DNA of 40,669 nucleotides from positions 1 through 40,669 of the forward strand of contig CAZLLV010000407.1 of assembly GCA_964560325.1 (NCBI GenBank). Reading direction: 5' to 3'. This document shows positions 2,238 through 20,500 of this stretch, one piece after another. The first letter of the stretch is position 1. Every line of letters starts with the position of its first letter. The notes below the pieces were generated by a model, which was not told where the DNA came from, searched no databases, and was given only the letters and a program-made list of their open reading frames with translations. The stretch is from an uncultured Thermoanaerobaculia bacterium. Lineage in GTDB: Bacteria; Acidobacteriota; Thermoanaerobaculia; Multivoradales; DATKCC01. Position numbers and translations under genes: made by a program.

Positions 2238-2266
2238 TTGACATTCTCTTTAGATTATGCATATAT
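2238..2266 (+). promoter_or_regulatory. Putative sigma70-type promoter for the reprolysin-like protease gene
   Basis: TTGACA (2238-2243), 17 nt spacer, ATATAT (2261-2266). It lies in a local AT-rich island in otherwise GC-rich DNA. AAAGGAG RBS at 2296-2302, ATG at 2310. Confidence 0.4.
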
Positions 2267-2309
2267 CCGCCTACACAAATAAACGGGCGCTACGAAAGGA
2301 GCTCCGCCC

Positions 2310-4328
2310 ATGCAGCCCACGATCCGTTCGATCTTCGCCCTCGCCGTCCTGGCACTCTCTCTCCCGATCCTCACGCCTCCAGCCGCCGCCGCGCCACCCA
2401 CGGCCGATCCACCGCGCCTCTTCCTCGACGCCGATCCGCTTCCGGCGGCCCCCGAAGCGGACGAACGGATCCTGCGGCAGCGCGTGGTCCGCGTCGACTT
2501 CACGGCCCTCGACGACGCCGCGGAGCGGGCGACACGTGGTCGCCGGGCTTCGGCCGGACGCCTCACTCTCAACCTCTTTCCCGGTTTCTCGCCGGTCACC
2601 GAGCTCGACGAGCTCCGCTCCGAGACTCCTTCCTCGCTATCCTGGGTTGGCCACCTGATCGGCGAGCGCGCTGGACAGGTCACTCTGGTGTGGGGCGACG
2701 GCGTCCTGGTCGGTCACCTGTGGCACGGCGACGAGGCCTACCGTATCCGCTACCTGGGCGGTGACCTCCACGTCGTCGAGCAGCTCGACCCGGCCGCCTT
2801 CCCCGCCGAGGCCGAGCCCATCGTCCCACCGCAGGGCCTTTCCGAGGCTCTCTCCGCGGGGGAGCCCGAGCTGACAGCCCAGGCGGACAGCGGCGCCACG
2901 ATCGACGTCCTCGTCGTCTACACGGCAGCGGCCCGCTCGGCGGCCGGCGGAACCTCCGCCATCCAATCCGAGATCGCCGGTGCGATCTCCGACACCAACA
3001 CCGCCTTCTCCAACAGCAACGTCGTCCAGCGGGTGAACCTGATCCACACGGCCGAGGTCGACTACGACGAGTCCGGGAGCGCGTCCACCGTGCTCGGCCG
3101 ACTCCGTAACACCAGCGACGGCCACATGGACACCGTCCACGCACTGCGCGACATCTACCGCGCCGATCTCGTGGCACTCGTAGTGTCCAGCTTGTCGGGC
3201 GCCTGCGGCATCGGCTACCTCATGCAGACCGAGAGCACGAGCTTCGCGTCGAACGCCTTCTCGGTGACCGACCGTGACTGCTTCATCCAGTACACCCTGG
3301 CCCACGAGATGGGGCACAACATGGGGAGCCACCACGATCCGGCGAACGCCGGCAGCACCCCGGTGTTCTCCTACTCGTACGGCTACCAGGACGCCACCAA
3401 CGGCTTCCGCACCGTGATGGCTTACCCCTGCGCCGGCTCGTGCCCGCGGATCCGCCACTGGTCGGACGACACGATTCTCTACATGGGCCACGCTACCGGC
3501 GACGCCGACCAAGACAACGCGCGGTCCCTCAACAACGTACGAACCACCGTCGCCAACTTCCGCGACTCGGGTGCCGCCTGCTCGTCGACCTCGAAGAACC
3601 TTTGCATGCACAGCAACCGGTTCGAGGCCAACGTGACCTGGTACAACCCGTCCGATGGTGCCCGCGGGATCGCGACCTCGATCTCCGACACGAGCTCGTC
3701 GGGCTACTTCTGGTTCTTCGGGAGCTCGAACGTAGAGACCGCCCTGAAGATCCTCGACGGGACCTCCGTCAACGGCAAGTACTGGTTGTTCCACGGCAGC
3801 CTGACCGGAACCGAGTACACGCTCCGGGTTCGCGACACCACGAACAAGACGGTGAAGACCTACACCAAGGCGGCCAGCAGCTACTGCGGCGCCGGAGACA
3901 CCGGGGCGTTCGCGCTGGAGATCCCCGGACCGATCCTCGAGGAGGAGTTTCCCGAGGCCGGTGGCGCGGGCGGCGGCGCGAACCCCGAAGGCCCGATCGC
4001 GCAACTCGGCTCGTGCACGGCGAACACCACCACGGTCTGCCTGCTCTCCAACCGGTTCGCGGTGCGCGTGAAGAAGGGCGGGGTCTACCAGAGCGGCGAC
4101 GACATCACCTCGCTCACCGGCATCTTCTGGTTCGTCAACCGGAGTACCCCCGAGGTGGTAGTCAAGACCCTCGACGGCACCGGCATCAACGGGAACTACT
4201 GGGTGTTCTACGGCTCTCTCACCGATCAGTCGTACCAGGTCGAGGTCACCGACACGGTCACCTCGACGACCAACATCTACACGCCGCCGGCATCGCTCTG
4301 CGGCGACGCGGACCTCGCGGCGTTCTGA
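2310..4328 (+). CDS. Secreted reprolysin-like (M12B-type metzincin) zinc metalloprotease with two C-terminal ~105-aa repeat modules
   Basis: Signal peptide MQPTIRSIFALAVLALSLPILTPPAAAA. Zinc site HEMGHNMGSHHD (nt 3303-3338) matches the HExxHxxGxxHD adamalysin signature, with a possible Met-turn at TVMAYP. The C-terminus holds two homologous modules (nt 3579-3911 and 4014-4325). Strong RBS. Confidence 0.85.
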   Translation: MQPTIRSIFALAVLALSLPILTPPAAAAPPTADPPRLFLDADPLPAAPEADERILRQRVVRVDFTALDDAAERATRGRRASAGRLTLNLFPGFSPVTELDELRSETPSSLSWVGHLIGERAGQVTLVWGDGVLVGHLWHGDEAYRIRYLGGDLHVVEQLDPAAFPAEAEPIVPPQGLSEALSAGEPELTAQADSGATIDVLVVYTAAARSAAGGTSAIQSEIAGAISDTNTAFSNSNVVQRVNLIHTAEVDYDESGSASTVLGRLRNTSDGHMDTVHALRDIYRADLVALVVSSLSGACGIGYLMQTESTSFASNAFSVTDRDCFIQYTLAHEMGHNMGSHHDPANAGSTPVFSYSYGYQDATNGFRTVMAYPCAGSCPRIRHWSDDTILYMGHATGDADQDNARSLNNVRTTVANFRDSGAACSSTSKNLCMHSNRFEANVTWYNPSDGARGIATSISDTSSSGYFWFFGSSNVETALKILDGTSVNGKYWLFHGSLTGTEYTLRVRDTTNKTVKTYTKAASSYCGAGDTGAFALEIPGPILEEEFPEAGGAGGGANPEGPIAQLGSCTANTTTVCLLSNRFAVRVKKGGVYQSGDDITSLTGIFWFVNRSTPEVVVKTLDGTGINGNYWVFYGSLTDQSYQVEVTDTVTSTTNIYTPPASLCGDADLAAF

Positions 4329-4350
4329 GCCGGTCGAGCTCGATGTAACG

Positions 4351-4411
4351 GCCGGCCCCCGGGAAGTCGGCCTTCCCTTTATGGAGAGGGAGCAGACCGC
4401 CGGGGGCCGGC
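4351..4411 (+). terminator. Long GC hairpin downstream of the protease gene (possible terminator or attenuator; no U-tract)
   Basis: GCCGGCCCCCGG (4351-4362) pairs perfectly with CCGGGGGCCGGC (4400-4411). The 37-nt loop contains a smaller TCCCT/AGGGA pairing. Confidence 0.3.
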
Positions 4412-4474
4412 GTCGTCGTAGGCGAGATCGGGCACAGGGATTGCTGCTCCTCCGCGGCCAGGAGGCATTCATCC

Positions 4475-4936
4475 ATGAGACGACCGACCCCGTACGTCCT
4501 CGCCCTGCTGGCGCTCCTCGCCGTCGCCGGGCTCGCCGCCCCCTCGACCCCGCTGCACGCTCAGCAGCCGACCCAGGCACCGGAGCAGCCGCCGGAGGTC
4601 CAGCCCCAGCCGTTCCCGGCGGAGCCCGAGCAGCCGCCCGCCGAGCGGCGACCGGACGAGGTCCAGCCGGCCGAGCCGGCTCCCGAAGATCCGCCCGCCG
4701 ACGTCGAGCCCTACGACTCGGAGACGGACGCGGAGGACACGGAGGTCGGCACCGAGGTCGAGATCGAGTCGCCGGTGATCGACGACGCGGGTGAGCAGGC
4801 GGACGAGACCACCGACGTGCTCGACGGAGACGCCGAGGAGGAGGCCTGGTATCGCGAGCCGCTCTGGGTGCTGATCGGGCTGGTCGCCCTGGTGGTGGTC
4901 GTGATCCTGCTCTTCGCGTCCGGGAGACGCCGGTAG
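4475..4936 (+). CDS. Hypothetical secreted acidic Pro/Glu-rich protein with a C-terminal TM anchor and terminal RRR
   Basis: AGGAGG RBS 8 nt upstream. Signal peptide MRRPTPYVLALLALLAVAGLAAPSTPLHA, a low-complexity P/E/Q/D region, then WYREPLWVLIGLVALVVVVILLFASGRRR. High GC at third codon positions. Confidence 0.7.
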   Translation: MRRPTPYVLALLALLAVAGLAAPSTPLHAQQPTQAPEQPPEVQPQPFPAEPEQPPAERRPDEVQPAEPAPEDPPADVEPYDSETDAEDTEVGTEVEIESPVIDDAGEQADETTDVLDGDAEEEAWYREPLWVLIGLVALVVVVILLFASGRRR

Positions 4937-4948
4937 GGGCCGACGGAT

Positions 4949-5025
4949 CTCCCCTCCAAACCCCTACCCTTCCTCCCCTCGCGGGGAGGGAGGGCGCCCC
5001 CACCCGAACCCTTTGCTCCGTAAGG
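4949..5025 (-). repeat. REP-like intergenic element, copy A (inverted relative to copies B and C)
   Basis: The reverse complement reads CCTTACGGAGCAAAGGGTTCGGGTGGGGGCGCCCTCCCTCCCCGCGAGGGGAGGAAGGGTAGGGGTTTGGAGGGGAG. It aligns with copies at 6063-6136 and 24878-24977. Central hairpin CCCTTCCTCCCC/GGGGAGGGAGGG. It lies between convergent genes. Confidence 0.8.
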
Positions 5026-5069
5026 CTGGATCGCATCCCGCCGCAAGCGGTCTGCCGGCGAGCGGGCAG

Positions 5070-6059
5070 TCAGGGGATCGTGACGATGACTTTCCCGACC
5101 GTGCCGCCTTCGACCACCGCGCGGTAGGCGCCGGCCACGTCCTCGAACGGGAACGTGCGCGCGACGAGCGGCCGCAGCCTGCCGTCCGCCAGCCGCTCCT
5201 CGGCGAAGGCGCGGAAGGCACCGACCAGCTCCGCCTTCTCCTCCCGCGAGCGGGCGCGCAGCACCGAGCCGCGGACCCGGAGCCGGCGCCGGAGCACGTC
5301 GGCCAGGTCGACCTCCGCGCGGCTCCCGGCGAGCACGCCGACCAGGACCAGCCGGCCGCGGTCCCGGAGCGCCGCCAGCCGCTCGCCGAAGTGCTCGCCG
5401 CCGACCAGGTCGAGCGCGAGATCGGCGCCCCGGCCGCCGGTGTGCCCCCGCACCGCTTCGGCAAGACCCGGCCCGTCGATCAGCAGCTCCTCGACGCCGA
5501 GCTCACGGAGCGGCTCCAGCCGCTCGAGGCTCCGGCCGGCCGCCAGGACCCGCGCACCGAGCTCCCGGGCGAGCTGTACGGCGAAGCTGCCGACGCCGCC
5601 GTTGGCGCCGTTGATCAGGACCGTCTCGCCCGCTTCGAGCCCGCCCTCTTTCACCAGGTTGGTCCAGGCGGTCATCGCGGCTTCCGGCACCGCGGCGGCC
5701 TCCGCGAACGACAGGCTCTCCGGCAACGGCAGGAGCTGCCCCGCCGGCACGGCGACCTTCTCCCCCATCCCGCCGCCGGCGAGAAGCGCCATCACCCGGT
5801 CGCCCGCGCGCCAGCCCTCGACCTCGCCGCCGACCGCCTCGATCACGCCGGCGCACTCGAGCCCCGGCACCGCGCTCTCGCCCGGTGGCGGCGGGTAGAG
5901 GCCGCGGAGCTGGAGGAGGTCGGCCCGGTTGAGCCCCGCCGCCCGCACCGCGACCCGCACCTCGAACGCAGAAAACCCCGGCTCGGGGACCTCCACGAGC
6001 CGGGGCTCCGGATCGGCCGGCCGCTCACCGCGGCCGACAGGCGTCAAGGCCAGCACCAC
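5070..6059 (-). CDS. qor: NADPH:quinone oxidoreductase (zeta-crystallin / MDR superfamily)
   Basis: EVRVAVRAAGLNRADLLQLRGLYPPPPG...PGLECAGVIEAVG, a Rossmann motif INGANGGVGSFAVQLA, and C-terminal GKVIVTIP. The start is GTG. Confidence 0.85.
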   Translation of the reverse strand: MVLALTPVGRGERPADPEPRLVEVPEPGFSAFEVRVAVRAAGLNRADLLQLRGLYPPPPGESAVPGLECAGVIEAVGGEVEGWRAGDRVMALLAGGGMGEKVAVPAGQLLPLPESLSFAEAAAVPEAAMTAWTNLVKEGGLEAGETVLINGANGGVGSFAVQLARELGARVLAAGRSLERLEPLRELGVEELLIDGPGLAEAVRGHTGGRGADLALDLVGGEHFGERLAALRDRGRLVLVGVLAGSRAEVDLADVLRRRLRVRGSVLRARSREEKAELVGAFRAFAEERLADGRLRPLVARTFPFEDVAGAYRAVVEGGTVGKVIVTIP

Positions 6060-6062
6060 ACT

Positions 6063-6136
6063 CTCCTCAGCAAACGGCTCGGGAGGGGGCGCCCTTTCTC
6101 CCCGCGCGGGGAGAAAGGGAAGGGGTTCAGAGGGGC
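6063..6136 (+). repeat. REP-like intergenic element, copy B (intact 14-bp palindromic stem)
   Basis: CTCCTCAGCAAACGGCTCGGGAGGGGGCGCCCTTTCTCCCCGCGCGGGGAGAAAGGGAAGGGGTTCAGAGGGGCG. CCCTTTCTCCCCGC (6092-6105) pairs with GCGGGGAGAAAGGG (6106-6119). It sits directly 3' of the acyl-CoA dehydrogenase stop codon. Confidence 0.85.
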
Positions 6137-6138
6137 GA

Positions 6139-8072
6139 TCAAGTCGTCACGGGCTCCGGCTTCAGCGAGGCGTCCTCGTCCTCCGACGTCGCCTCCTCCG
6201 AGCCCTTCGGGGCCAGCGACTCGCCCGGTCTCACCACCTTCATCGTCCCCTCCTCCAGCCACAGATGCTCACCCTTCAGCACCCGCTGGGCGACCCGGTA
6301 CTTCAGCTCGTCGTCGTTGTGCCAGAGCTCGTGGAACAACCGCTGCACCGTGCGCCGCGACCCGCGGCAGAAGAGATCGGCGATCTCGACCGCCCGCGAG
6401 GCCTCGGGGTGCCCCTCGACCACCATCGCGTGCGCCCTCGAGACCGAGCTCGTGATCGCGAACAGCTCGTTCGCCACGTCGACCAGCCGGAAGAGGAACG
6501 CCTGCTTGTTCTGGAGCTTCGGACCGAAGACGACCATGCCGTGGAAGATCTCTCGCGAAAGCTTCCGCGAGCTCCGCTCGGCGAAGCGCAGGTGGCCGGC
6601 GAGCGGCCCGAACTCGGAGAACGCCGGCGGCAGGCTCCAGCCGAGCCAGCGGGTCGGGTACCAGGAGGCGTAGAAGGCGGCGATCTTCGGCAGCGCGGCC
6701 GCCTTCTCGCCCAAGCTCTTCTTCGGGTCGATCAGCTCGCCCGAGACCTCGAGGTGCTTGTCCACGGCCTCGCGCGCCATGAACAGGTGCATGATCTCGC
6801 TCGACCCCTCGAAGATCTTGTTGATCCGGTAGTCGCGCATCATGCGCTCGACCGGCACCGGCTCCTCGCCGCGCGCCGCCAGCGACCCCTCCGTCTCGTA
6901 GCCCCGGCCGCCGCGAATCTGCATCGTCTCGTCGATGATCTGCCAGCCGCGGAGGGTGTTCCACTCTTTCGAGGCGGCGGCCTCGAGGCGGATGTCGAAG
7001 CCCTTGTCGTCGGCCATCGCGGTCGCCAGCTCGACCATCGACTGCATGGCGAAGCCGAAGCCGGCGATGTCCGCCACCTTGTGGGCGATCGCCTCGTGCT
7101 GGCCGATCGGCTTGCCCCACTGCACCCGCTCGCTCGACCATTTGCGGACGATCTCGAGGCACGCCTTGGCGACGCCCGCCGAGCCGTTCGGGATCGACAG
7201 GCGGCCGTCGTTGAGCGTGGTGAGGGCGATCTTCAGGCCCTTGCCCTCGTCGCCGATCAGGTTGTCGACCGGCACCTTCACCTGGTCGAAGTCGATCACC
7301 GCGTTGGCCAGGGCGCGCAGGCCCATGAAGTGGCAGCGGTGCTCGACGATGACGCCCGGGCTGTCCATCTCGACCACGAACGCACTGATCTTGCGGCTCT
7401 CCTTCTGCGCCGCCATCACCACGATCAGGTCGGCGATCGTGCCGTTGGTGCACCAGAGCTTGCGGCCGTCGAGGATGTAGTGCTCGCCGTCGGCGGTCTT
7501 CTCGTAGGTGGTGAGCAGGCGCGCCGGGTCGGAGCCGACCTGGGTCTCGGTCAGGGCGAAAGCCGAGATCTCGCCCCGGGCGCAGCGCGGCAGGAACTTT
7601 TTCTTCTGCGCCTCGGTGCCGAACAGCTTGAGCGGCTGCGGCACGCCGATCGACTGGTGGGCGGAGAGCAGCGCCGAGATGTTGCCGTCGTAGGTGCCGA
7701 GCAGGTGCATGACCTTCTGGTACTCGCGCTGGGAAAACCCCAAGCCGCCGTACTCCTTCGGGATCTTCATACCGAAAGCGCCGAGCTTTTTCAGCCCGTC
7801 GACCACGTGATCGGGGTACTCACCCTCGCGGTCGATCGCGCCCGGGTCGACCTCGTTCTTCAGGAACTCGCGCAGGGCGTTGTAGAAGGCCCCGAACTCG
7901 GGCCGGTCCTCGGCCGCGGCGAGCGGGTAGGGGTGAACGAGATCGAGCCGGAAGTTCCCGAGGAACATCTCGCGCATGAAGCTCGGCTTGGACCAACCCT
8001 TCTCGCGCGACGCCTCGGCCACCTCCATCGCTTCGGCTTCGCTGACGTGACGGACTTTCTGCTCTTTCATCT
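6139..8072 (-). CDS. Long-form acyl-CoA dehydrogenase (VLCAD/ACAD9-like, with C-terminal extension domain)
   Basis: Start chosen at ATG 8072 (MKEQKVRHVSEAE), preceded by GAGGAGAG. ACAD core motifs present: GLGFSQREY, ISAFALTETQVGSDPA, WCTNG, QIRGGRGYETE, INKIFEGSSEIM. An additional ~180-aa C-terminal region follows. Confidence 0.9.
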
Positions 8073-8157
8073 GCGCTCTCCTCGGGTGTCGTCGTTTCTC
8101 TACTCGTCCATCGTAGCATCCGCCGCGTCGCGGCACAAGGGCCGCATTGCGGCAAGC

Positions 8158-8169
8158 ACGAACGTTCGT
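8158..8169. promoter_or_regulatory. 12-bp perfect palindrome ACGAACGTTCGT upstream of the acyl-CoA dehydrogenase gene (candidate operator)
   Basis: Perfect dyad read directly, about 86 nt upstream of the ATG at 8072. Function is inferred only. Confidence 0.2.
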
Positions 8170-8249
8170 TTTTTCGCCGTGCACACGCCCTCGGGGTCAC
8201 GAGGGGTACCGACATCATACCGCGCTCGTCCGCCCGCCGGACGCCGCCC

Positions 8250-9134
8250 CTACCGTGCCCGCGCGGTCGCGGTCACCGCGACGCCGCCAACCACCAGTAG
8301 AGCACCGAGCACGATGCGTGCCGTGATCCCCTCGTCGAACAGGAGCGCCCCGAGCGCCACCGCCACGACCGGTGACAGGTAGTTGGTGAGCGCGAGGCGC
8401 GTGGCTTCCATGTGCTCGAGCAGCCAGAAGTAGAGGTAGAAGGCGATCGCCGAGCCGAAGACCGCGAGGTAGAGGACCGTCGAGACCGACAGCGCGTCGA
8501 ACACCACCGGCCGGCCGCGCTCGAAGGCCAGCGACCCGGCGCCCAGCACCACCGCCGCGATCAGCATCGGCACGCCCGAGAGCGAGACCGGGTGCACCCC
8601 TCTCCCCCACCGCTTGACCGCGTTGCTCGCCACCGCCGCCAGCAGCGGCGCGATCAGCAGCACCCCCGCCGCCCGCCGCGCCCCCGGCTCCGCCAGGCTC
8701 GCCAGGTCCTCCGAGAAGATCACCGCCACCCCGGCGAAGCCGGCGAGCACGCCGACCGCGCCCCGCCCCGTCAGCCGCTCCGCCGGCAACATCACCTGGG
8801 CGAGCAGGGCCACGAAGAGGGGGAAGGTCGCGAAGAGGACGGCCGTCAACCCCGACGGCACTCGCTGCTCGGCCCAGTAGACAATGCCGTAGGTGAAAAC
8901 GAAGGTCAGCAGCCCGTTGACCCACCAGAGCGCCACCTCCCGGCGGCTCCGCCCGAGCGGCAGGCGCCGGAAGAACGCGAACCCAAGCAGCAACACCGCC
9001 GCCACCGCGAACCGCAACGCCGCCCCCGCGAACGGCGGCATCCCCTCCAAACCCAACCGGATCGCCGCCCAGGTCGAGCCCCAGATCAGCGTGATCGCGG
9101 CCAGGGCGACGAAGCGGAGGGCGGGGGAGGGCAT
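8250..9134 (-). CDS. EamA/DMT-family (drug/metabolite) transporter
   Basis: A 294-aa polytopic protein of about 10 TM segments, as two EamA-like halves (LIWGSTWAAIRLG... and ...LTNYLSPVVAVALGALLFDE). Confidence 0.85.
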   Translation of the reverse strand: MPSPALRFVALAAITLIWGSTWAAIRLGLEGMPPFAGAALRFAVAAVLLLGFAFFRRLPLGRSRREVALWWVNGLLTFVFTYGIVYWAEQRVPSGLTAVLFATFPLFVALLAQVMLPAERLTGRGAVGVLAGFAGVAVIFSEDLASLAEPGARRAAGVLLIAPLLAAVASNAVKRWGRGVHPVSLSGVPMLIAAVVLGAGSLAFERGRPVVFDALSVSTVLYLAVFGSAIAFYLYFWLLEHMEATRLALTNYLSPVVAVALGALLFDEGITARIVLGALLVVGGVAVTATARAR

Positions 9135-9190
9135 GAGAGCGCTTCGGCCGGGGCGAGGTGGAGCAGGTGCAGGGTGGGGTCTGGAGAAAG

Positions 9191-9613
9191 CTACCGCTCT
9201 TCGATCAGCAGCCGGAAGGTGTCGCAGTGGTCAGGGCGTACGGCCCGGAAGTGGCGGTGGTCGGTCGTGAGGATCACGTCGGTCTTCAACCGTTCGGCCA
9301 GGGCGACGATCGAGGCGTCCGTGCCGCCGAGTGGGAAGTCGGCATACTTCTCCACCAACTCCGCGATCCGGGGCCAGTCCTCGGCGCTCGGTGAACGAAC
9401 GTCGAAAGCCTCCAACGAACGGAGGAACGTCGCCTCCACTCCGGAACCTCCGCTCTGCTGGAGGACGTGGGCAACCTCCGCAACGCACAGCGCGGGAATG
9501 ACGAGGCGCAGCTTCGGCGAGCGGAGGGCGGAGATCGCCGCCGCGTGGTACTTGTCGGCCCGGTTCGTGGCGGCGATCAGGGGACCGCTATCGACGATCG
9601 CGATCGATGGCAT
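9191..9613 (-). CDS. vapC: PIN-domain ribonuclease toxin (VapC-like)
   Basis: IAIVDSGPLIA (first acidic residue), CVAEV, GGTDASIVALAE and ILTTDHRHF are typical PIN acidic-quartet positions. The gene overlaps the upstream antitoxin by 26 nt. Confidence 0.8.
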   Translation of the reverse strand: MPSIAIVDSGPLIAATNRADKYHAAAISALRSPKLRLVIPALCVAEVAHVLQQSGGSGVEATFLRSLEAFDVRSPSAEDWPRIAELVEKYADFPLGGTDASIVALAERLKTDVILTTDHRHFRAVRPDHCDTFRLLIEER

Positions 9614-9839
9614 CGGTCCACGTCTCGTCGAGAAACTCTTCGATCTGGTCGCTCTGGACCATGCCTGGATCGTCCATGATCCCGGCGAACGGGATCTCCC
9701 GGGGCTTCTTCTCGGTCCCGAGGAGGAATTGAGCGACGAGCTTCCGCACCACTTCGGAGACCGGCGTGCTTCTCCGGCGCGCCTCGTCCCTCAGAAGATT
9801 GTCCAGATCGTCAGGCAAACTGATGGTTAAGCGCCTCAT
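9588..9839 (-). CDS. vapB: Ribbon-helix-helix (CopG/VapB-like) antitoxin
   Basis: MRRLTISLPDDLDNLLRDEARRRSTPVSEVVRKLV is a classic RHH beta-strand plus two helices. It lies immediately upstream of, and overlaps, the PIN gene. Confidence 0.8.
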   Translation of the reverse strand: MRRLTISLPDDLDNLLRDEARRRSTPVSEVVRKLVAQFLLGTEKKPREIPFAGIMDDPGMVQSDQIEEFLDETWTDAIDRDRR

Positions 9840-9894
9840 ACGCTCATACTAGCACACAGGCGATGCTCCTTCCATCGGCCACATCAGCCCGGCG

Positions 9895-10044
9895 GTGGAG
9901 GGCTTCGAGGAGGCCTTTCTCGCTGCCTACCACACGCTGCGCTGCCTCGCTGCCAACCCGGACGCGGCAGCACTCTTCATCGAGGCCCTCGACCCGGAGA
10001 CCGTGGCGCTCCTCGGGAGGGCCGTCATGCGCCGGCTGAGGTGA
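9895..10044 (+). pseudogene. Possible gene remnant or small ORF with coding-like codon bias and no ATG
   Basis: The frame is open from 9853 to the TGA at 10042-10044 and reads ...VEGFEEAFLAAYHTLRCLAANPDAAALFIEALDPETVALLGRAVMRRLR. Third codon positions are GC-rich. The only canonical start is GTG at 9895. No RBS seen. Confidence 0.2.
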
Positions 10045-10115
10045 CGCGGCCACCGAGGCCGGGGCGGTCCGACCCCGCCCCGGGCCGGTGGATCATGCAG
10101 TCGTGGCGAGGGGGG

Positions 10116-12560
10116 TCACTCCTCCTCGAGCCGTTCCCGCACGCGGGCGAGGTTCTTGGCGACGGTCCGGGTGTTCGGGTGCTCCGCACCGAGGATCGCC
10201 TCGGCAATCTCCAGCGCCCGGCGGTACTCCGCCTCGGCCGCGTCCAGGTGGCCCTGCTTCTCGAGGATGCCGGCGAGGTTGTTGCGGTCGGTCGCTACCT
10301 CGGGATGCTCCGGGCCATAGACCGCCTCGTCGATCGCCAGCGCCCGACGGGTCAGCTCCTCCGCACCCGCCAAGTCCCCATGAGCCTGAAGGATCTGGCC
10401 CAGGTTGTTCGCGTAGATAGCCACCTGCGGATGCTCCGAACCATAGACCGCCTCGGCGATCGCCAGCGCCCGCCGGGTCAGCTCCTCCGCACCCGCGAGG
10501 TCCCCGCGAGCCTGAAGGATGGTCGCCAGGTTGTTGGCGCGGATCGCCACGGTCGGATGCTCCGGGCCGTACACCGCCTCGCCGATCGCCAGCGCCCGCC
10601 GGGTCAGATCCTCCGCACCCGCCAGGTCCCCGCAATCCTGAAGGATCTGGCCCAGGTTGCTCGCGCATATCGCCACCTCGGGATGCTCCGGGCCGTACAC
10701 CGCCTCGGCGATCGCCAGCGCCCTGTCCAGGTGGTCCTGGGCCCGGTCGAGCACGCCCCGGTCCAGGAGCTGCAAGCCGGCTTCGTTCAGGAGCCGGCTG
10801 GTCGCCTCGGGCTCCACGCCGAGCTCTTCGGCCGCCTCGGTCGCGGCGGCCACGTGGGGGAGCAGGCGGAGGGCCGAATCCCAGGTGGCGAGGTCGTACC
10901 CGTCATACCCGTAGCCGGCGTCCAGCAGCCGGACGGCCGCCGCGGCCCAGGTGCGTTCCTCCTCTTCGCCCAGCCGGTCCCGGAGCACCGCCTGGACCAG
11001 CCGGTGGATGCCGGCGCTGCCGGCCTCGATCTCGAGCAGCGAGAGCCGGCGGGGCGCGGCCAGGACGTCGTGCCAGCGCAGCCGGTCGCGCGCGGCGGTG
11101 GCGAGGGGCTCCGGGAGGACCTCCGGGTGCTCGGCGCAGAGCGCCAGGGGCAGGTCCTCGGGGGCGAAGAAGGAGAGCAGCCGCAGCAGGTCGCCCGCCT
11201 CGGGGGCTTCCTTCTCCATCGCCTCGAAGGAGAGGTCCCAGGTGATCTCCACCGGCTCTTCCCGGTGGGAGCGCGGCGCCCCGCGGGCGAGGAGCTCGCT
11301 CCGGCGCTCCCGGAAAAGCTCCTCGTAGGCGGCGAGCGTCAGCGCCCCGTCCTCCCGGATGAACGCCCCCGCCTGCTCCAGCGCCAGCGGCAGGCGGCCG
11401 AGGGCCTCCGCCAGGCTCCGGGCGGCGGCGTCCTCTCCCGGGCCTTCCCCGCCGGGGCGCTCCCCGCTCGGATCGTCCGCCTTGCCCGGCGCCGTCCGCT
11501 CCAGGAGAAACTCTACCGCGTCGTCCAGCGGCAGCACGTCCACCGGCAGCTCCGCGGCGATCCCGTCCCAGTCGCGCCGGCGGGAGGTGATCAGCACCGG
11601 CCCGGTCCGGCCCCGGGGCAGGTAGGGCTCGAGCCCCGCCGGGTCCTCGGCGTTGTCGAAGACCAGCAGCCAGCCGCCGTTCGTCTCCAGCCACCGCCGG
11701 ACGGCGGCCACCTCGGCCTGCGGGTCCGGCGGTCCTTGCTCCGAGGGGGGATCGGCCAGCCCCAGCTCCGCCGCCAGGGCGGCCAGGTCCCGGACAATTG
11801 TCTCCGAGTCCGCGGCCCGGACCCACCAGATCACCCGGTACTCCCCCGCGTGCTGGTAGACGTACTCCAGCGCGAGCTGCGTCTTTCCGACCCCGCCGAG
11901 GCCCCGGATGGCCTGGGTCAGCGCTGCATGGGCCGGTGCCCGGTGGTTCGACGACCCAGCCGGGGCGAGCGCCTCCTCCAGTCGCGCCAGCAGATCCTCC
12001 CGCCCGATGAAGTGCGGATTGCGCCGATGAGGCACGTTGAAGTGCGGCGGCAACGCCCCCGGAAACGCCGGCTCCGAGACCGGCAGGCCGGCCTCCCCGC
12101 TCCCGCCGACACCGGCCCCGCCGGCCCCACCCCCGGGATACGCCGGCTCCTCCTCCGGCGGCCCGGGCGGCTCCAGACCGTCCAGAAGCGCCCGCCGGGC
12201 GCCCTCCGGCTCCTCGTGACCCACCAGGTCGATGTAGACGAGCGACCCCAGTAGCCCTCCAGGATCGCACTCCCGCACCCTCACCGGCACCAGCCGCCAC
12301 CCGCCCCCCTCCGGATCCTCCCGGAACCGCGCCGCCCACTCCGGCGCCACGTACCCGGAGCGCAGTGCGCTCGGCGACAGCACCAGCAGCGTCCGCCGCG
12401 TCTCCCGCGCCGCCCGGTCCATCTCCAGCGGAAAGTTCGCCCCCGGCCCCCAGGTCCACCCCTGGAGCTCCACCGAGTACCCCGCCTCCAGGAGCTGCCA
12501 CGCGATCCACTCCGCCCAGGCCTTGTCCGCCGAGGAGAAGCTGACGAAGAAATCCTTCAT
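10116..12560 (-). CDS. TIR domain / NB-ARC STAND NTPase / TPR-repeat protein (bacterial NLR-like)
   Basis: Start chosen at ATG 12560 (MKDFFVSFSSADKAWAEWIAWQL...), where the TIR-like fold begins; a candidate catalytic Glu lies in YVAPEWAARF (nt 12339-12341). P-loop GLGGVGKTQLA (11880-11903), Walker B LLVFDNAED, an ARC-like region (LPLALEQAG), then five 42-aa TPR units at the C-terminus. Confidence 0.9.
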   Translation of the reverse strand: MKDFFVSFSSADKAWAEWIAWQLLEAGYSVELQGWTWGPGANFPLEMDRAARETRRTLLVLSPSALRSGYVAPEWAARFREDPEGGGWRLVPVRVRECDPGGLLGSLVYIDLVGHEEPEGARRALLDGLEPPGPPEEEPAYPGGGAGGAGVGGSGEAGLPVSEPAFPGALPPHFNVPHRRNPHFIGREDLLARLEEALAPAGSSNHRAPAHAALTQAIRGLGGVGKTQLALEYVYQHAGEYRVIWWVRAADSETIVRDLAALAAELGLADPPSEQGPPDPQAEVAAVRRWLETNGGWLLVFDNAEDPAGLEPYLPRGRTGPVLITSRRRDWDGIAAELPVDVLPLDDAVEFLLERTAPGKADDPSGERPGGEGPGEDAAARSLAEALGRLPLALEQAGAFIREDGALTLAAYEELFRERRSELLARGAPRSHREEPVEITWDLSFEAMEKEAPEAGDLLRLLSFFAPEDLPLALCAEHPEVLPEPLATAARDRLRWHDVLAAPRRLSLLEIEAGSAGIHRLVQAVLRDRLGEEEERTWAAAAVRLLDAGYGYDGYDLATWDSALRLLPHVAAATEAAEELGVEPEATSRLLNEAGLQLLDRGVLDRAQDHLDRALAIAEAVYGPEHPEVAICASNLGQILQDCGDLAGAEDLTRRALAIGEAVYGPEHPTVAIRANNLATILQARGDLAGAEELTRRALAIAEAVYGSEHPQVAIYANNLGQILQAHGDLAGAEELTRRALAIDEAVYGPEHPEVATDRNNLAGILEKQGHLDAAEAEYRRALEIAEAILGAEHPNTRTVAKNLARVRERLEEE
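10179..10745 (-). repeat. 126-bp tandem repeat inside the CDS, encoding the TPR units
   Basis: Units start at 10179, 10305, 10431, 10557 and 10683, a period of exactly 126 nt. The three central units share long identical runs, e.g. GATCGCCAGCGCCCGCCGGGTCAG.TCCTCCGCACCCGC. Confidence 0.9.
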
Positions 12561-12769
12561 GGCTGCGGAGTGTATCGGTGGACGAGAGACCGAGAGCAGG
12601 CGGTCTGCCGAGAGGAGTCGCGACTCAGAGAGTCGGGCGAACCTGATGGGGATGAACGTCTCTCCAGGGCTCACCGCCGGAGCGGGCTGGGGCCGAAACG
12701 ATTCCGGGAGCGCCGCCATATCCTGAAGGAATCAAGCAAGCCATCCAATCCACTGACGCTGGAGGTCTC

Positions 12770-14374
12770 ATGAAAGCAGCCTTCCGTCCCGCCCTCCTTG
12801 CAGGGTCCCTCTGTCTCGCCGCCGCCCTGCCGGCCGCCGCCACCACCTACGTGATGATGGAGGACGCGGCGCTCGCCGATCAGGCTTCGATCATCGTCGA
12901 GGGTCGGATCGAATCCGCGGCCCGGGCTTCGGACGCTCCCTATGCCGCCACCGAGTACACGGTCGCGGTGACGCGGACGATCCAGGGGACTACCTCCGGC
13001 GACACCGTCGAGGTCCGGGTCCTGGGCGGGCTCCCCCGGGACGACGGCCCCTGGTTCCACGCCTGGGGCGTGCCACGGTTCCAGCCGGGAGAAGCGGTCC
13101 TGCTCTTCCTCTCGCCCCGGCCGGACGCCCGGCTCGAGCTGGTCCAGCTCGCCCTCGGCGCCTTCCGAAGCGTCGCCCGCGAGGGGCGGCGCTTCGCCGT
13201 CCGGCCGGAGCTCTCGGCCCACGGCCTGGGGGGCCCGGACCGGGTCCGGGACCTCGATGCATTCGCCGACTGGCTCGCCGACCGCGCCCGCGGGATCTCG
13301 CGCCCGGCCGACTACTTCACCGACCCGCCGGCGGGAGGGGTCGCCCGGCTCGCCGAGCGCTTCACTCTCTTCGAGGACGAGTCCGGCAGGAACTTTCGCT
13401 GGTTCGATTTCGACCAGGGGCTCACGGTCGACTTCCGGGCCAACGCCTCCGGGCAGTCCGGCATGGCCGGGGGCGGATTCGCGGAGGTGACCCACGGACT
13501 CTGGGTGTGGAACCTGGACAAGAAGTCGAACGTCGCCCTGCGCAACCGGGGCGAGACGAGCTATTCCGGGCGCTTCGGCTACTGCGACGGGTACAACCTC
13601 GTCCTCTTCGACGACCCCCACGACGAGATCTCGGGGAGCTACGACTGCGACCGCGGAGGGACCCTCGCGATCGGCGGAGGGTGCGTGAACGGCACCGGGA
13701 CGTTCGAGGGCAAGCAGTACTGGCGGATCAGCGAAGGGGACATCCTCACCCAAGACGGCGCCGGCTGCGCCTACGGGGCGGCCGGGGGCAAGGTGGGCGA
13801 GTACGTCTTCGGGCACGAGGCGGGCCACACCCTGGGGATCGGCCACTCCTGCGGCAACCCCGGCAACGACCCCGGCTGCTCGAATCCGGCGGCGGCCGCC
13901 GCGATCATGGCGGCCTCCGTCTCGGCGCGGGCGGTTCACGGGGCGAGCCTGGGCCACGACGATCGCGCCGCCGTCAGGACGCTCTACCCGGAGGCTGACG
14001 ACGGCGGTGGCGAGGAGCCGTCCGACGGCTGGCTCACCACCCGCGAGATTCCGGGCTTCCGGTTCCGGGTCACCATCCTCCCCGGTGGGGACGCCGAGCC
14101 CGTCCCCGGCGCCAAGGAGGACGGCTGCCTGGCGGAGACTCTGTGCGTGAGCGGCGCCATCGCGGGCCGGGTGGAGGTCCAGCTCCGGATCTCGGGCCCG
14201 AAGCCCAACGGCAAGCTGTGGCCCACCTTCACCAAGTTCACGACCTCCGCGGTGGAGATCGACGTGGAGCAGACCTCGTCCGGAGTGGTGAAGTCCTACG
14301 ACCTCACCGGCGCGGGCCCCGGAGACGACACGTTGAACGGCCTCTTCGACCGGGACGGCTTCGACCCGTCGTAA
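12770..14374 (+). CDS. Secreted matrixin/serralysin-like (M10-type metzincin) zinc metalloprotease with a C-terminal module
   Basis: GGAGG RBS. Signal peptide MKAAFRPALLAGSLCLAAALPAAA. Zinc site HEAGHTLGIGHS (13814-13849) fits HExxHxxGxxH, with a candidate Met-turn at AIMAAS. The C-terminal ~110 aa (14027-14362) resemble the module in the 2310..4328 protein. Confidence 0.85.
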   Translation: MKAAFRPALLAGSLCLAAALPAAATTYVMMEDAALADQASIIVEGRIESAARASDAPYAATEYTVAVTRTIQGTTSGDTVEVRVLGGLPRDDGPWFHAWGVPRFQPGEAVLLFLSPRPDARLELVQLALGAFRSVAREGRRFAVRPELSAHGLGGPDRVRDLDAFADWLADRARGISRPADYFTDPPAGGVARLAERFTLFEDESGRNFRWFDFDQGLTVDFRANASGQSGMAGGGFAEVTHGLWVWNLDKKSNVALRNRGETSYSGRFGYCDGYNLVLFDDPHDEISGSYDCDRGGTLAIGGGCVNGTGTFEGKQYWRISEGDILTQDGAGCAYGAAGGKVGEYVFGHEAGHTLGIGHSCGNPGNDPGCSNPAAAAAIMAASVSARAVHGASLGHDDRAAVRTLYPEADDGGGEEPSDGWLTTREIPGFRFRVTILPGGDAEPVPGAKEDGCLAETLCVSGAIAGRVEVQLRISGPKPNGKLWPTFTKFTTSAVEIDVEQTSSGVVKSYDLTGAGPGDDTLNGLFDRDGFDPS

Positions 14375-14434
14375 GGATCTGCCGGGCACTCGCGGCAGCC
14401 GGCCGTGACGCTGGCCGTGGTCGATCCGACGAAC

Positions 14435-15751
<1,317 letters not shown>

Positions 15752-16640: not shown

Positions 16641-17528
16641 ATGGCACAGCCCGCCCGCCCACCCGGCGCCCCTCCCGGCCGGCCGCGCCCCTTCACCGTC
16701 GCGACGCGCGACGGGCTCGACCTGATCGTCGAGAGCCGGACTCCGAGTCGGGCTCCGAGCCGGGCCCCCCGGACCACTTCCGAGCCCGGACGCCGCGTGC
16801 TCATCGTCCACGGCTTCGGCGAGCACCACCGCCGCTACGACACGCTGACCGGCGAGCTCACGGCGGCCGGCCACGAGGTCCACCGCTTCGACCTCCGCGG
16901 GCACGGCGAGTCGGAAGGGCGGCGCGGCCACGTCGACGATTTCGCCGAGTACCGGCGCGACCTCCTGCGCGTCGCCGACCACGTGGCCCCTGACGGGCCG
17001 CTCGACCTGGTCGCCCACAGTCTCGGCGGGTTGATCGCTCTCGATACCGCGCTCCACCACCCGGACCGCTTCGCCTCGCTCGCGCTGAGCGACCCGTTCC
17101 TCGCCCCCTCCTCCGAGCTCCCGTTCTACGCCCGGCCGCTCGCGAACCTGGCCGTCCGCTTCCGGCCCGGCGCCACCTTCTCCGCCGGGATCGACCCGGA
17201 GGGGCTGTCGCGCGATTCGGAGGCGGTGCGCGCCTACGTCGCCGACCCGATGATCGTCCGGCGGGTCACCGGCGGCTGGCTGCTCGAGGTGCTCGCGGCG
17301 CAGGTGCGGGTGCGCTCGCGGGCCGACGAAATCCGCCTGCCGGTCCTGCTGCTCCTGGGCGGCGCCGACCCGATCGCGTCGGTCGAGCGGTCGCGCGAGG
17401 TCTTCGAGCGGCTCGGGAGCGAGCGCAAGCGCCAGGTGGCCTTCGACGGCTTCCGCCACGAGATCCTCCACGAGCTCGGGCGCGAGCGGGTGGTCGGGGA
17501 GCTGCTCGCCTGGCTGGCCGGCCTATAA
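16641..17528 (+). CDS. Alpha/beta hydrolase, lysophospholipase / monoacylglycerol-lipase-like
   Basis: Start at ATG 16641. HGFGEHHRRYD, nucleophile elbow AHSLGG, C-terminal FDGFRHEILHE (His of the triad). The stop overlaps the stop of the convergent patatin gene by 6 nt. Confidence 0.85.
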   Translation: MAQPARPPGAPPGRPRPFTVATRDGLDLIVESRTPSRAPSRAPRTTSEPGRRVLIVHGFGEHHRRYDTLTGELTAAGHEVHRFDLRGHGESEGRRGHVDDFAEYRRDLLRVADHVAPDGPLDLVAHSLGGLIALDTALHHPDRFASLALSDPFLAPSSELPFYARPLANLAVRFRPGATFSAGIDPEGLSRDSEAVRAYVADPMIVRRVTGGWLLEVLAAQVRVRSRADEIRLPVLLLLGGADPIASVERSREVFERLGSERKRQVAFDGFRHEILHELGRERVVGELLAWLAGL

Positions 17529-20500
17529 CCCGTCCGGTGCCTCACCCCGACATTCGTCCGGACACTCGATCGGCACCCGCAGGCTGCTCTGGAACTCGGG
17601 CGGCCCCCAGCTCTCGACCATCCCGATCCGTTCGTCGAGGTCCTCGCCGGCCTGGTCGATCATCCGCTTGACCGTGGTGGCGCGGAAGTCGGTGAGGATC
17701 GGCCAGTCGTCGGCCGGCGGCGGCGCGATCGAGGCGACGAAGAGGTCGGAACGGCTCCGCCGGTCGAGCTGCTGCGAGCGCTCGTAGAGGAACCCGAGGA
17801 GCCGCGGGACGTTGTCGACCAGCGGCCCGCCGAGCGCCGTCAGCCAGCCGCCATCGGAGGAATCCGGGCGCGGGTTCGACGAGTGGATCACCAGCGCCTG
17901 GCGAGCGCCGATCTTCGCCGCCGCCTCGATCGGCACGTTGTTGCTGTAGCCGCCGTCGACCAGCGCCTCCCGGGTCGGGGACGCGTCCTCGCGCGCGGCG
18001 CCCTCCTCGCCGTGGATGCGCACCAGCTTCGGCGGGAAGGCGGGAAACGGCGAGCCGGAGGCGAAGATGTAGTTCTGGAGCTCCTCCCGGTCCGCCTGCG
18101 TCCCCAGCGCCAGGGGAGTGCAGTCGTCCGCTCGCGTGCTCGTGCCGGCGGAGCCGCCCTCGCGGACCGCCCGAAACTTTCGCCACGTCACCCCCGGCGC
18201 CGTCGGCACCGCCGGGCACGCGTGGTCGTCGGGCACCGCCAGCACGAAGCGGGTGCCGTCGAGCGCGAGGGCGTTGGCGGGGGCGAGGTAGCGGGCGGTC
18301 AGGCGGTACGAGGAGCGGTCGTGGCTCTTGCGGTACTCCGCCTCGAAGCGCTCCTCGGCGCTCTCCATGTAGTCGAAGGCGTAGCGGTTGCCGTAGAGCG
18401 CCGGCGCGAGCAGGAAGTTCCACCACACGAGGCCGCCCAGGGCCATCGCTCCCAGCCGCACGACGCGGCGCGGCACCAGGTGCGCGTTCGGGTGGATCGA
18501 GCAGAGGTAGGCGAGGGCGGCGGTGACCCCGCGCGAGAACGCACCGGCGCCTTCGCGGTTCCCCTTCCACGCCCAACGGACGAGCACCAGAGACCCGACG
18601 AGGCTGGCGACCGCGAGCCCGATCCAGAAGGACGGCGTCAGCTCGAACAGGGTCAGCGCCGCGAGCCGCCGGAAGCCGGCCGAGCCCGCGAGCCAGCCGG
18701 TCGCGTCCACGACCGAGATCAGTCGCACGACGAGCCAGAGGCCGGCGTAGACCGCGAAGGCGAGGCCGGTGACGACCAGGAGCACCGAGTCGCGGAAGCG
18801 CCCCTCGTCCTCCAGTCGATAGGCGTTGCGGCGGCGGTGGAGGACCAGGATCGTGCCGAGCAGGAGGAAGACGGCGCCGAGGCAGACGGCGAGCGGCCCC
18901 CGTGGCGCCTGGAGCTTCGATTCGGCGGTGAAGACCTCCACCACGCCGGCGCCATCGAACTCCGCCGCCTCGGGCCGCGTGAGGTCGAGCACGATCAGGC
19001 AGCCCAGGAACGCGACCGCGCCGAGCCCGAAGAGGCGCGCCGCGCGGTGCCCGAGGACGTCCTGGACGACGTCGACGCCGACGGCATAGGCCCTCCCCCA
19101 GAAACCGCGCTCCCATCGGCGCCGGGCCTCCGGCCCGTGGTCGACGCTTGCCGCGACCCGGACCGCGATCGCGATCAGGAGCCCGAGGCCGAGGACGAGG
19201 AAGAGAAGCGGCGTGCGGTCGATCCAGGCGAGCACCCGGACATCGGCGGCCTGGAGGATCCACCACGAGGCCAGGGTGCCGACCGTGAAAGTGGCCGGCC
19301 AGGCGAGGACGTTCCACCACCCGAAGCGCCGCAGCCGCCCCGCACCGACGGCGAGGAGGCCGACGCCGGCGGCCATCGAGCCGAGCACCAGATAAGAGCC
19401 GCCGGTCGTCACCAGTGTCTCGAGGGCCTGTGATTCGGGTGCTGCGAGCCGGACCAGCACCGGGATCGCCACCAGGACGCCGCCGACCAGGAGGAGGGCG
19501 ATCGGGACGACGGTCCGCAGGTCCGCCAGGAAAAACCTCCGCCCGGGCCCGCGCAACGGCGGCGCGTCCTTCGGAAGGTGCCGCTCGCGCCGGACGAGGC
19601 ACTGGTCGGCGTACATGCCGAGCACCAGCAGGACGGCGTAGAGAAGCCCCTCGAACTCGGGCACGTGCTCCTCGGCGAGCGGGCCACTGACCCACCGCAC
19701 GACGAGTGGAGTGAGACCCAGGAGCGCGAGCAGCGAGAGCCAGAGGACCGGGCGCACCGAAGGCTCGGCCTCCGGCTTTTCGCCGGCCGGCCGCCGCTCC
19801 GGCGCGAGGAACCCCCGGTGGCGCCAGGAGAAGGGGGCGAGCGCGAGACCGAAGATGCAGAAGATCAGCACCAGGCTCACGTAGCGCGGCAGGTCGGTCC
19901 AGCCGAAGATCTCCGACGCCGTCAGGTAGCGCTCGTCGTCGTCCGCGTCGGGCTTCCAGAGGATGCTCGAGAGCTCTCCCGGTCCGTGCGGTCCCAGCCG
20001 GGCGACGAAGAAGCCGAGCAGGGCGCCGCCGCTGGTGCCCACCACCGAGTCGACCTCGAGCGGGGTGGCCGCGGGGATGGCGACGTCGCCGGGCTGGACG
20101 CCGGCTCGGGCGCCACCGGAGGAAGAGGCGAAGACGAGCGACCGGTCGCGGTCGGGTGCCGGCAGGGTCTCCGGATTCGCCCCCGCATTGCGCAGCAGCG
20201 GTAGCCCGCGCGCCCCCTCCGCGTAGAGGTCGTCGAGCACCCGCGACTGGTAGGCCGCCTTGACGCCGCCGCCCGGGAGCACCAGCGCGAGCCGCCCTCG
20301 GCTCGAGATCCGCTGGTGGAGCTCGATCAGGTCGAGGGTCTCGCCGATCCGGAAGGCGAAGGTGCGGGTGCCGAAGTAGCCGTCGGGCGTGAGGAAGCCG
20401 TCGAAGGCCGAAGGGATCGGCGCCTGGGCCGGCCCCCCGACCGCCCGGTCGAGGACCTCGCGCAGGCGGTGGAGCTCGCCCCACGGTGGGGGCTCGGACT

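Follow-up and report, generated by a model that had tools for sequence, protein, structure and literature searches.

What does a bacterial gene do that joins a TIR domain, an NB-ARC module and a TPR array in one polypeptide and has no partner gene beside it? The question is raised by an open reading frame (ORF) at positions 10116-12560 (- strand) of contig CAZLLV010000407.1, a stretch of 40,669 nt with a G+C content of 72% (the window, to whose whole length all positions refer). Homologues of its asparaginyl-tRNA synthetase (AsnRS), with 84% identity to named metagenome-assembled genomes, place the window in the Acidobacteriota, class Thermoanaerobaculia. A preliminary description of the locus had proposed that the product is a TIR/NB-ARC/TPR protein of the STAND class (signal transduction ATPases with numerous domains). 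Our data show that the gene is an intact single-protein sensor, switch and effector of the design found in plant TIR immune receptors, and that it belongs to a family of stand-alone, mobile single-gene cassettes. We consider it rather probable that the protein is a stand-alone, single-polypeptide sensor of conflict or immunity, resembling the receptors that combine a nucleotide-binding domain with leucine-rich repeats (NLRs) and acting through abortive infection by a TIR NADase.

The TIR, NB-ARC and TPR parts of the protein

The coding sequence comprises 814 codons and a TGA stop at 10116-10118 (- strand), the frame is uninterrupted, and the G+C content at its three codon positions (0.79/0.50/0.90) has the pattern of the real genes of the window. 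The first in-frame ATG, at 12719, would give a protein of 867 residues and the ATG at 12560 gives one of 814. The latter is the better start, because the alignments of the two closest homologous proteins (P0002 and P0003) with the 814-residue form start at residue 1 on both sides, and because DNA similarity to the locus of the closest homologue (L002; 90%) begins there, running from 15 nt upstream of this ATG to 52 nt past the stop. The proposed coordinates and domain order were both borne out. Significant Pfam matches were obtained for TIR_2 (residues 4-123, 104 bits, E 9e-30), for NB-ARC (residues 217-403, 26.0 bits against a gathering score of 23.5, E 6.5e-6) and, over five stretches, for TPR_12 and TPR_10 (E 1e-51 and 2e-45, respectively), while DUF7779 (residues 447-534, 25.3 bits) falls slightly under its cut-off. 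The motifs quoted in the preliminary description, FVSFSSADKAWAEWIAWQL, YVAPEWAARF (with E74), GLGGVGKT (with K226) and LLVFDNAED (with D302), are all present, and E74, K226, D302 and H519 were each verified at codon level in the gene.

The full-length AlphaFold2 model, built with 73 homologues (mean predicted local distance difference test (pLDDT) 85, predicted TM (pTM) score 0.72), consists of a flavodoxin-like TIR domain (residues 1-130), a disordered linker, an alpha/beta NTPase, a helical and winged-helix region and a very confident TPR solenoid. With the whole model as query, Foldseek ranks the TPR domains of kinesin light chains (KLC) first (KLC1, 2.5e-11), and among matches that span several domains the best is to the TIR-NB-ARC core in the resistosome of RPP1 (7dfv_B, E 1e-8), a plant TIR-NLR (TNL). 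The Gly/Pro-rich linker expected from the sequence is found at about residues 131-178 (12027-12170, - strand), with pLDDT below 50 over approximately residues 134-165, as befits a flexible segment. Overall, the TIR-STAND protein is well formed and probably functional.

The TIR domain (residues 1-130; 12171-12560, - strand), the putative NADase effector, was also modelled alone (pLDDT 79.5). This model is nearest in Foldseek to the bacterial TIRs BtpA/TcpB, PdTIR and AbTir (TM 0.61-0.69), followed by TLR1, SARM1 and the TIR-APAZ protein of SPARTA. The glutamate that the preliminary description had assigned to the catalytic position is Glu74 (codon GAG, 12339-12341, - strand), which stands where helix alphaC begins (residues 71/73-81 in the AlphaFold2 models), in an (F/Y)xxxE-W motif. 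In a sequence-profile alignment the family TIR profile places '...FTQPEW...' over '...WPQKEL...' of PdTIR, and Glu74 thus corresponds to the Glu of the WxxxE motif. Among 120 full-length homologues that are 40-50% identical, the set to which all conservation figures below refer, Glu74 is retained in 118, and the Trp75 that follows it is equally conserved. The residue four positions before Glu74 is Tyr70 in our protein and in the family Phe in 77, Tyr in 38 and Trp in 1 of the 120 homologues. In AbTir the motif comprises W204 and E208; the E208A mutant is inactive, and NADase activity requires E208 (Manik et al. preprint). This suggests that the TIR domain of the window protein may be a NADase dependent on Glu74.

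When TIRs assemble, the BB loop contributes to their composite active site, and in this region (box 2) the window protein departs from its family, with WTWGPG in place of WDFRPG. The residues concerned, Thr36-Trp37 (12450-12455, - strand), are otherwise Asp (114 of 120) and Phe (111 of 120), and Thr and Trp are found solely in the window protein and in P0002 and P0003. Further substitutions at positions more than 85% conserved are Y8F, A59L, Y65A, T71V and A78R. Glu74, Trp75, Ser62, Gly40 and all ATPase motifs have been kept. Decay of the domain is argued against by the fact that the substitutions are common to P0002 and P0003, the BB-loop change thus being shared across proteins 73-82% identical, and by the fact that no other domain is as well conserved between the window protein and P0002 as the TIR (92%).

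The nucleotide-binding domain of the NB-ARC module (residues 179-345; 11526-12026, - strand) was delimited from the Pfam match, motif conservation and a profile search of the PDB. Its Walker A motif GLGGVGKT (residues 220-227 with K226 and T227; 11880-11903) is found in 99% of the homologues, as is Asp302 of the Walker B motif LLVFDN (11652-11669), and Arg327 of the sensor-1 motif TSR (residues 325-327) is 98-99% conserved. The helical and winged-helix part (residues 346-575; 10836-11525, - strand) was recognised from conservation, from DUF7779 and from the NCBIfam model NF040586 (residues 179-573). It carries a GLPL motif, GRLPLAL (residues 388-394), with P391, L392 and A393 at 100% and the flanks at 97-98%, and an MHD-like His519 (IHRLVQ; codon 11004-11006) that is present in 100% of the homologues. 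Since all STAND motifs are 98-100% conserved, the ATPase switch looks functional. The PDB profile search with the NB-ARC region gave AfsR (6e-20), Roq1 (4.6e-9), NRC1 (3.8e-8) and Apaf-1 (1.3e-5), and also NRC4 and ZAR1; no Avs structure was among the matches. A precomputed PF00931 match is present on many homologues. The NTPase belongs to the NB-ARC/AP-ATPase clade of STAND NTPases.

The C-terminal sensor region (residues 576-814; 10119-10835, - strand) consists of a capping helix pair and, as had been counted before, five TPR units, each of 42 residues and of the kinesin-light-chain type (pLDDT >95); KLC1 in the PDB matches it also by sequence (E 4e-30). The central units appear in the DNA as an internal tandem repeat at 10276-10723 (- strand; Tandem Repeats Finder: 126-nt period, 3.6 copies, 85% matches). 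A unit-by-unit comparison showed them to be 74-81% identical in protein, with the differences mostly at unit positions 1, 28, 32, 38 and 42. Similar near-identical 42-residue units of the KLC type are known from fungal NLRs with internally conserved TPR, ANK or WD repeats (Podospora TPR, PDB 4y6w and 4y6c), in which the internal identity is higher than in the window protein. Near-identical repeats with few variable positions are said by Dyrka, Paoletti and Saupe to permit a rapid change of specificity.

Divergence of the sensor is seen most directly in the contig of a 73%-identical homologue (L001; JGI Ga0373564_0001530, positions 1-11568), which carries a tandem array of two complete and two partial paralogues and may in that respect be an artefact of metagenomic assembly. 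The two complete paralogues are 100% identical over TIR, linker and nucleotide-binding domain (341 residues), 86% identical in the helical and winged-helix part and 70.5% identical in the TPRs. Repeat-number variation is present among the homologues as well. A frozen signalling module with a diverging repeat domain is, by analogy, the pattern seen in immune receptor families.

Homologues, mobility and the accessory islet

The closest homologue (82% identity in protein and 90% in DNA) has wholly different flanks, which include ThiG and a DUF4062 protein. A scan of one genome per species gave at least 576 loci with this TIR subfamily, distributed patchily over Cyanobacteria, Acidobacteriota, Chloroflexota, Betaproteobacteria, Actinomycetota, Gemmatimonadota and Desulfobacterota, and over archaea that include Methanothrix and Methanosarcinales. 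A HMMER search with residues 1-575, that is without the TPRs, against 1.84 billion representatives returned 37,602 proteins at E <=1e-3, 6,589 of them at E <=1e-30, and the top 150 matches all align over most or all of the query, so that both domains are covered. The family thus amounts to at least 6,589 clusters at 50% identity, with thousands of full-length relatives at 40-50% identity. Plasmid records that carry the family number 63. On one of these plasmids, the conjugative pPAES01, the homologue adjoins a recombinase, a restriction endonuclease and a diversity-generating retroelement, and on a Streptomyces plasmid it adjoins a NACHT gene and a restriction endonuclease; copies are thus borne by conjugative or mobilisable plasmids.

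Two censuses bear on the claim that the protein stands alone. BLAST clustering of 442 ORFs lying within 5 kb of 50 full-architecture genes gave no conserved partner gene, paralogues apart; the recurrences consisted only of paralogous TIR-STAND/TPR genes and of the local synteny of three Pyrinomonadaceae genomes. Among the 149 nearest ORFs at 46 loci, Pfam recognised 220 families, of which the commonest (HTH_3 and TPR_12) occur in only 4 ORFs, and radical SAM, vWA, MoxR and PIN are not among the 25 recurrent neighbour families. The ORF caller used for the homologous loci was crude, and the censuses include some spurious ORFs and miss some small genes. With no recurrent partner at these loci, the earlier view of a stand-alone protein is upheld. 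The homologues are single-gene cassettes in variable, often mobile settings, and not members of conserved housekeeping contexts. The TIR-STAND gene is a stand-alone, mobile single-gene cassette.

The TIR itself occurs in other company too. In 84 loci, 50 TIR ORFs have the same NB-ARC module, usually together with TPRs, and 37 are without it. TIRs that are 50-60% identical to that of the window are fused elsewhere to VMAP-M1/VMAP-C, iSTAND, nSTAND1, NACHT, EAD9 and SAVED (L005, L010, L045, L061, L066 and others), and genes of about 310-350 residues follow the fused genes at gaps of 3-18 nt. The 37 ORFs without NB-ARC and the genes downstream of them also carry AAA-type domains (AAA_5, AAA and AAA_2; not assigned gene by gene), and these families may be MoxR-like. 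'NTP-dependent conflict systems' with such domains have been described, and their TIRs are held to have been acquired from versions fused to AP-ATPases (Kaur et al. 2020, PMC7159879). Since the TIR is shuffled among the architectures of conflict systems, we regard it as the output, or effector, end of the protein.

Two further observations were made at these loci. TIR-only proteins of about 250 residues exist in Betaproteobacteria (L012, L029 and L034). At L002 the DUF4062 protein is encoded at 1780-2934, 1.5 kb upstream of the homologue of our gene; DUF4062 frequently occupies the N-terminal position in STAND-like proteins.

In the window the gene lies in a 5.3-kb islet (9135-14434) between EamA (8250-9134) and AsnRS (14435-15751). 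In three relatives' contigs (L087, L088 and L089), with AsnRS 86-89% identical, AsnRS stands directly beside EamA in the core block RNase III - AsnRS - EamA - acyl-CoA dehydrogenase - Zn-ADH - (small ORF) - Mo-oxidoreductase - Ada. Because AsnRS adjoins EamA in these relatives, the gene is in a true accessory islet, as the preliminary description had supposed. The islet contains vapC, vapB, a 69-residue ORF, the TIR-STAND gene and a divergent gene for a secreted zinc-peptidase-like protein of 534 residues. The adjacent vapBC module that had been noted is also real. It is a toxin-antitoxin pair (9191-9839, - strand) on the same strand as the TIR-STAND gene and 277 nt downstream of it, with a ribbon-helix-helix (RHH) antitoxin at 9588-9839 (RHH_1, 3.3e-5) and a PIN toxin at 9191-9613 (Pfam PIN, 1.2e-13). 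The supposed gene remnant was not borne out. The spacer of 277 nt between the TIR-STAND stop and vapB (9840-10115) holds the 69-residue ORF (9844-10053, - strand) and a 63-residue open frame (+ strand), neither of which shows homology in Pfam, NCBIfam or PADLOC, and the domain models for TIR, NB-ARC and TPR found no paralogue fragments elsewhere in the window.

Proposed mechanism, known systems and competing explanations

How such a protein might work can be drawn from what is established for STAND proteins and NLRs (Apaf-1, plant resistosomes, Avs) and for TIR NADases (SARM1, AbTir, SPARTA), and it is from these that we infer the kind of ligand, the oligomerisation, the action as a NADase and the phenotype against phage. 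At rest, the NB-ARC (AP-ATPase) module would be bound to ADP and kept closed by the C-terminal TPR solenoid. A ligand, most plausibly a protein or peptide of a phage or other mobile element, would dock on the concave TPR surface. Its binding would free the lock and allow ADP/ATP exchange followed by oligomerisation of NB-ARC. The flexibility of the Gly/Pro linker would then let the TIR domains pack head-to-tail with composite active sites around Glu74, and the assembled TIRs would hydrolyse NAD+ and stop or kill the cell before the invader spreads, i.e. abortive infection.

In its logic, with an effector at the N-terminus, a STAND switch and a repeat sensor at the C-terminus of a single protein, it agrees with Avs/AVAST (Gao et al. 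2022) and bNACHT proteins. Avs recognises conserved phage proteins through its TPR sensor and assembles into tetramers (summarised in PMC9806590). The window protein differs from Avs and bNACHT in that its NTPase is of the NB-ARC/AP-ATPase clade, with AfsR, Apaf-1 and plant NLRs as solved relatives. Plant TIR-NLRs such as RPP1 and Roq1 are close in another way, since the NB-ARC profile matches Roq1, NRC1 and ZAR1 and the RPP1 core is the best multi-domain structural match; in contrast to them, however, the window TIR is nearest to bacterial TIRs, and KLC-type TPRs take the place of leucine-rich repeats. The plant TNP proteins (TIR-NBARC-TPR, formerly XTNX) have an identical three-part domain order, and it is by this order that we liken them to the window protein. 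Bacterial TIR-NB-TPR proteins have already been recorded, with a likeness to plant TNPs in the NB domain and not in the TIR or the TPRs, and a maize TNP kills cells in a manner dependent on the catalytic Glu (PMC9806590). Streptomyces AfsR (SARP - NB-ARC - TPR; PDB 8k60 and 8jke), the closest solved NB-ARC relative, also has C-terminal TPRs. AfsR is a transcription activator with a SARP DNA-binding domain at its N-terminus and controls secondary metabolism, whereas the window protein has a TIR and no DNA-binding domain.

Several observations weigh against an antiviral NADase sensor. As to the TIR, the position four residues ahead of Glu74 is occupied by Phe/Tyr and not by the Trp of WxxxE, the exchange of Asp36-Phe37 for Thr-Trp could alter or abolish assembly or catalysis, and the alignment shows that the non-enzymatic TIRs of TLRs carry a Glu at the Glu74 position too. 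AfsR, the protein of solved structure nearest to the NB-ARC module, is no immune protein but a transcription factor. PADLOC v2.0.0, with models for Avs, bNACHT, Rst_TIR-NLR and other STANDs, gave 0 matches for the protein at E <=0.01, and the defence assignment was in this respect not reinforced. The immediate neighbours of the homologues show no visible enrichment of known defence genes, as any one PADLOC model matches at most 2 of the 149 nearest ORFs (PtuA, mad3, AriA, AbiLi and others), a count that stands without a matched control set, and housekeeping genes make up the rest of the window. The family was not found in GenBank phages, and IMG/VR has 2 loci. Finally, experiments on a bacterial TIR-NB-ARC-TPR protein were not found in the literature searched. 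The preliminary description had left open whether a validated family has this architecture. The protein is a member of a very large, annotated family described in the literature (NF040586), but this family is not validated and has no PADLOC model.

Within the proposed mechanism, direct depletion of NAD+ is the weakest step. It is favoured over production of a messenger because there is no conserved second gene and no Trp of the kind linked to cyclisation. If the TIR were instead a signal generator, making an isomer of cyclic ADP-ribose (cADPR) or another nucleotide messenger for a separately encoded effector, the protein would work as in Thoeris or in the plant TNL-EDS1 pathway. Its structural neighbours AbTir and TcpB do produce 2'cADPR (Manik et al. 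preprint), and TIRs related to this one occur in fusion with SAVED and within multi-gene VMAP/iSTAND systems with predicted second messengers. However, no conserved neighbouring effector is found at the 46 loci, in the window or at L002, and the Trp of WxxxE, reported to be important or crucial for ADPR cyclisation in bacterial TIRs (Manik et al. preprint), is Phe/Tyr in this family. We therefore regard a messenger-producing TIR as unlikely, though it is the strongest of the alternatives.

The antiviral reading has also to be set against a self-directed switch for death or regulation, with TPRs that would respond to a peptide of the cell itself or to stress, as in kin discrimination, developmental death or the activity of a PIN-type toxin-antitoxin pair. 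NB-ARC-TPR proteins such as AfsR regulate physiology, the neighbours of the family are mainly non-defence genes, and such systems have been linked to multicellular or social prokaryotes (Kaur et al. 2020, PMC7159879). In addition, a PIN-type toxin-antitoxin pair follows each copy of the subclade, namely vapBC in the window and, in L001, a UPF0175 + DUF3368 (PIN-like) pair after each TIR-STAND paralogue. We considered PIN-type modules as functional partners and rejected them, since the wider census of 46 loci has no PIN among the recurrent neighbours; the link is therefore an observation on the subclade only and fails across the wider family. Neither a DNA-binding domain nor any other output domain of a regulatory kind is present in the protein, whose accessory, patchy and plasmid-borne distribution, together with the diversification of paralogues and TPRs, fits conflict better. 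A self-directed switch is accordingly judged improbable.

The name given to the family points in yet another direction. NCBIfam NF040586 (FxSxx_TPR, 'FxSxx-COOH system TPR protein', fxsT) matches the window protein with 406.4 bits against a cut-off of 300 (residues 179-573 on profile positions 3-374 of 830), PGAP names the homologues fxsT, and an AP-ATPase with an N-terminal TIR has been described beside FxSxx peptide-processing systems in actinobacteria (Kaur et al. 2020, PMC7159879). The FxsT/AP-ATPase family has the same TIR / NB-ARC / TPR order (Kaur, Burroughs, Iyer and Aravind 2020, eLife, PMC7159879). The protein could then be the FxsT component of a ternary system of FxSxx-COOH peptide, radical SAM and vWA-MoxR (VMAP) whose partners lie elsewhere in the genome. 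Yet the parts of that system (the FxSxx peptide, the FxsB radical-SAM/SPASM maturase, the zincin peptidase and vWA-MoxR-VMAP) are absent from the window and from the other loci examined. None of 536 stop-to-stop ORFs of at least 25 residues in the 40.7-kb window ends in FxSxx, the approximately 38 window ORFs searched have no Pfam match to Radical_SAM, SPASM, vWA or MoxR, and the sole CxxxCxxC radical-SAM motif of the window is in a spurious out-of-frame ORF. Families of the FxSxx system are not recurrent at the 46 loci, the plasmid homologues annotated as fxsT also stand alone, and the cassette moves as a single gene. As the features of the FxSxx system are absent from the window, the protein is a member of the NF040586 protein family and not of the system that gave it its name, and a role as FxsT component seems to us quite improbable.

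That the TIR of this subclade is catalytically dead, serving as a scaffold for oligomerisation or as an adaptor like the metazoan TIRs that have the same Glu, or that the protein is a decaying, non-functional copy, could be read from the remodelled BB loop and the five further substitutions, but is very improbable in view of the intact ORF with its normal codon-position G+C, of substitutions kept under selection in P0002 and P0003, of the retained TIR and ATPase residues and of a TIR that is the best-conserved domain.

The surrounding window and the place of the family

Divergently transcribed from the TIR-STAND gene is the gene for the 534-residue protein (12770-14374, + strand), which has a signal peptide, an HExxHxxGxxH zinc motif, weak Reprolysin_5 and M10 matches and no NCBIfam or PADLOC match. 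It was considered as the 'MPTase' of a peptide-processing system and rejected in view of the signal peptide and the missing NCBIfam match, and also since it is absent beside the closest homologues and metallopeptidases are not recurrent among the neighbours. It is islet cargo whose function is probably unrelated to that of the TIR-STAND gene. A perfect palindrome, CGACTCTCTGAGTCG, lies at 12618-12632 in the 210-nt intergenic region between the two divergent genes and may be an operator. A simple scan of 9000-13000 for promoters and terminators gave nothing informative and no sigma-70-like promoter. A second secreted metzincin, of the Mep72/Reprolysin-like type (681 residues; 2283-4328, + strand), is an insertion relative to close relatives, and shares with the 534-residue protein the zinc-binding motif only (BLASTP E 7e-4 over 25 residues).

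The remaining window is mostly housekeeping (MutL, FtsY, RibD, arginine decarboxylase and others). MutL, RNase III and AsnRS are adjacent in relatives, and a second lineage-specific insertion (16731-22952) separates RNase III from MutL, which are neighbours in the relative L088. It encodes an alpha/beta hydrolase (16731-17528, + strand), a protein of 1315 residues with a C-terminal patatin phospholipase as its only recognisable domain (17523-21470, - strand) and a metallo-beta-lactamase (MBL)-fold protein of 483 residues (21501-22952, - strand), all without a PADLOC or NCBIfam match; the patatin protein could be another effector-bearing conflict protein. A DUF5615/PIN_10 ORF, a PIN-like toxin candidate, is found amid housekeeping genes at 27316-28020 (- strand). 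PADLOC gave nothing meaningful for the other genes of the islet and the accessory regions.

For the window itself, the TIR-STAND gene is an ordinary accessory immune-like cassette in a chromosomal islet. Its architecture has been described repeatedly and carries a curated NCBI name, and the gene is an ordinary example and not a new kind of system. The name 'FxSxx-COOH system' is a problem of annotation, as it is attached to thousands of stand-alone TIR-STAND genes with no FxSxx system nearby, and catalogues of defence systems miss these genes. We put forward tentatively, as a possibility falling a little short of an even chance, that the stand-alone family is a major class of anti-phage or anti-plasmid receptors missing from such catalogues, a prokaryotic counterpart of the TNPs whose specificity would be set, as in the L001 paralogues, by shuffling of near-identical TPR units over a frozen TIR and nucleotide-binding domain. 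The Thermoanaerobaculia subclade, with its remodelled BB loop (WTWGPG), may assemble or catalyse differently from known TIR NADases. If the proposed function is true, the protein would exemplify in compact, bacterial form the design of plant TIR-NLRs, with sensor, switch and enzyme in one gene, and would come with natural paralogue pairs that differ almost only in the sensor. It would then offer a model for how TPRs gate the oligomerisation of NB-ARC and how oligomerisation switches on a TIR NADase, and for the relation of plant TNP-type receptors to their prokaryotic relatives.

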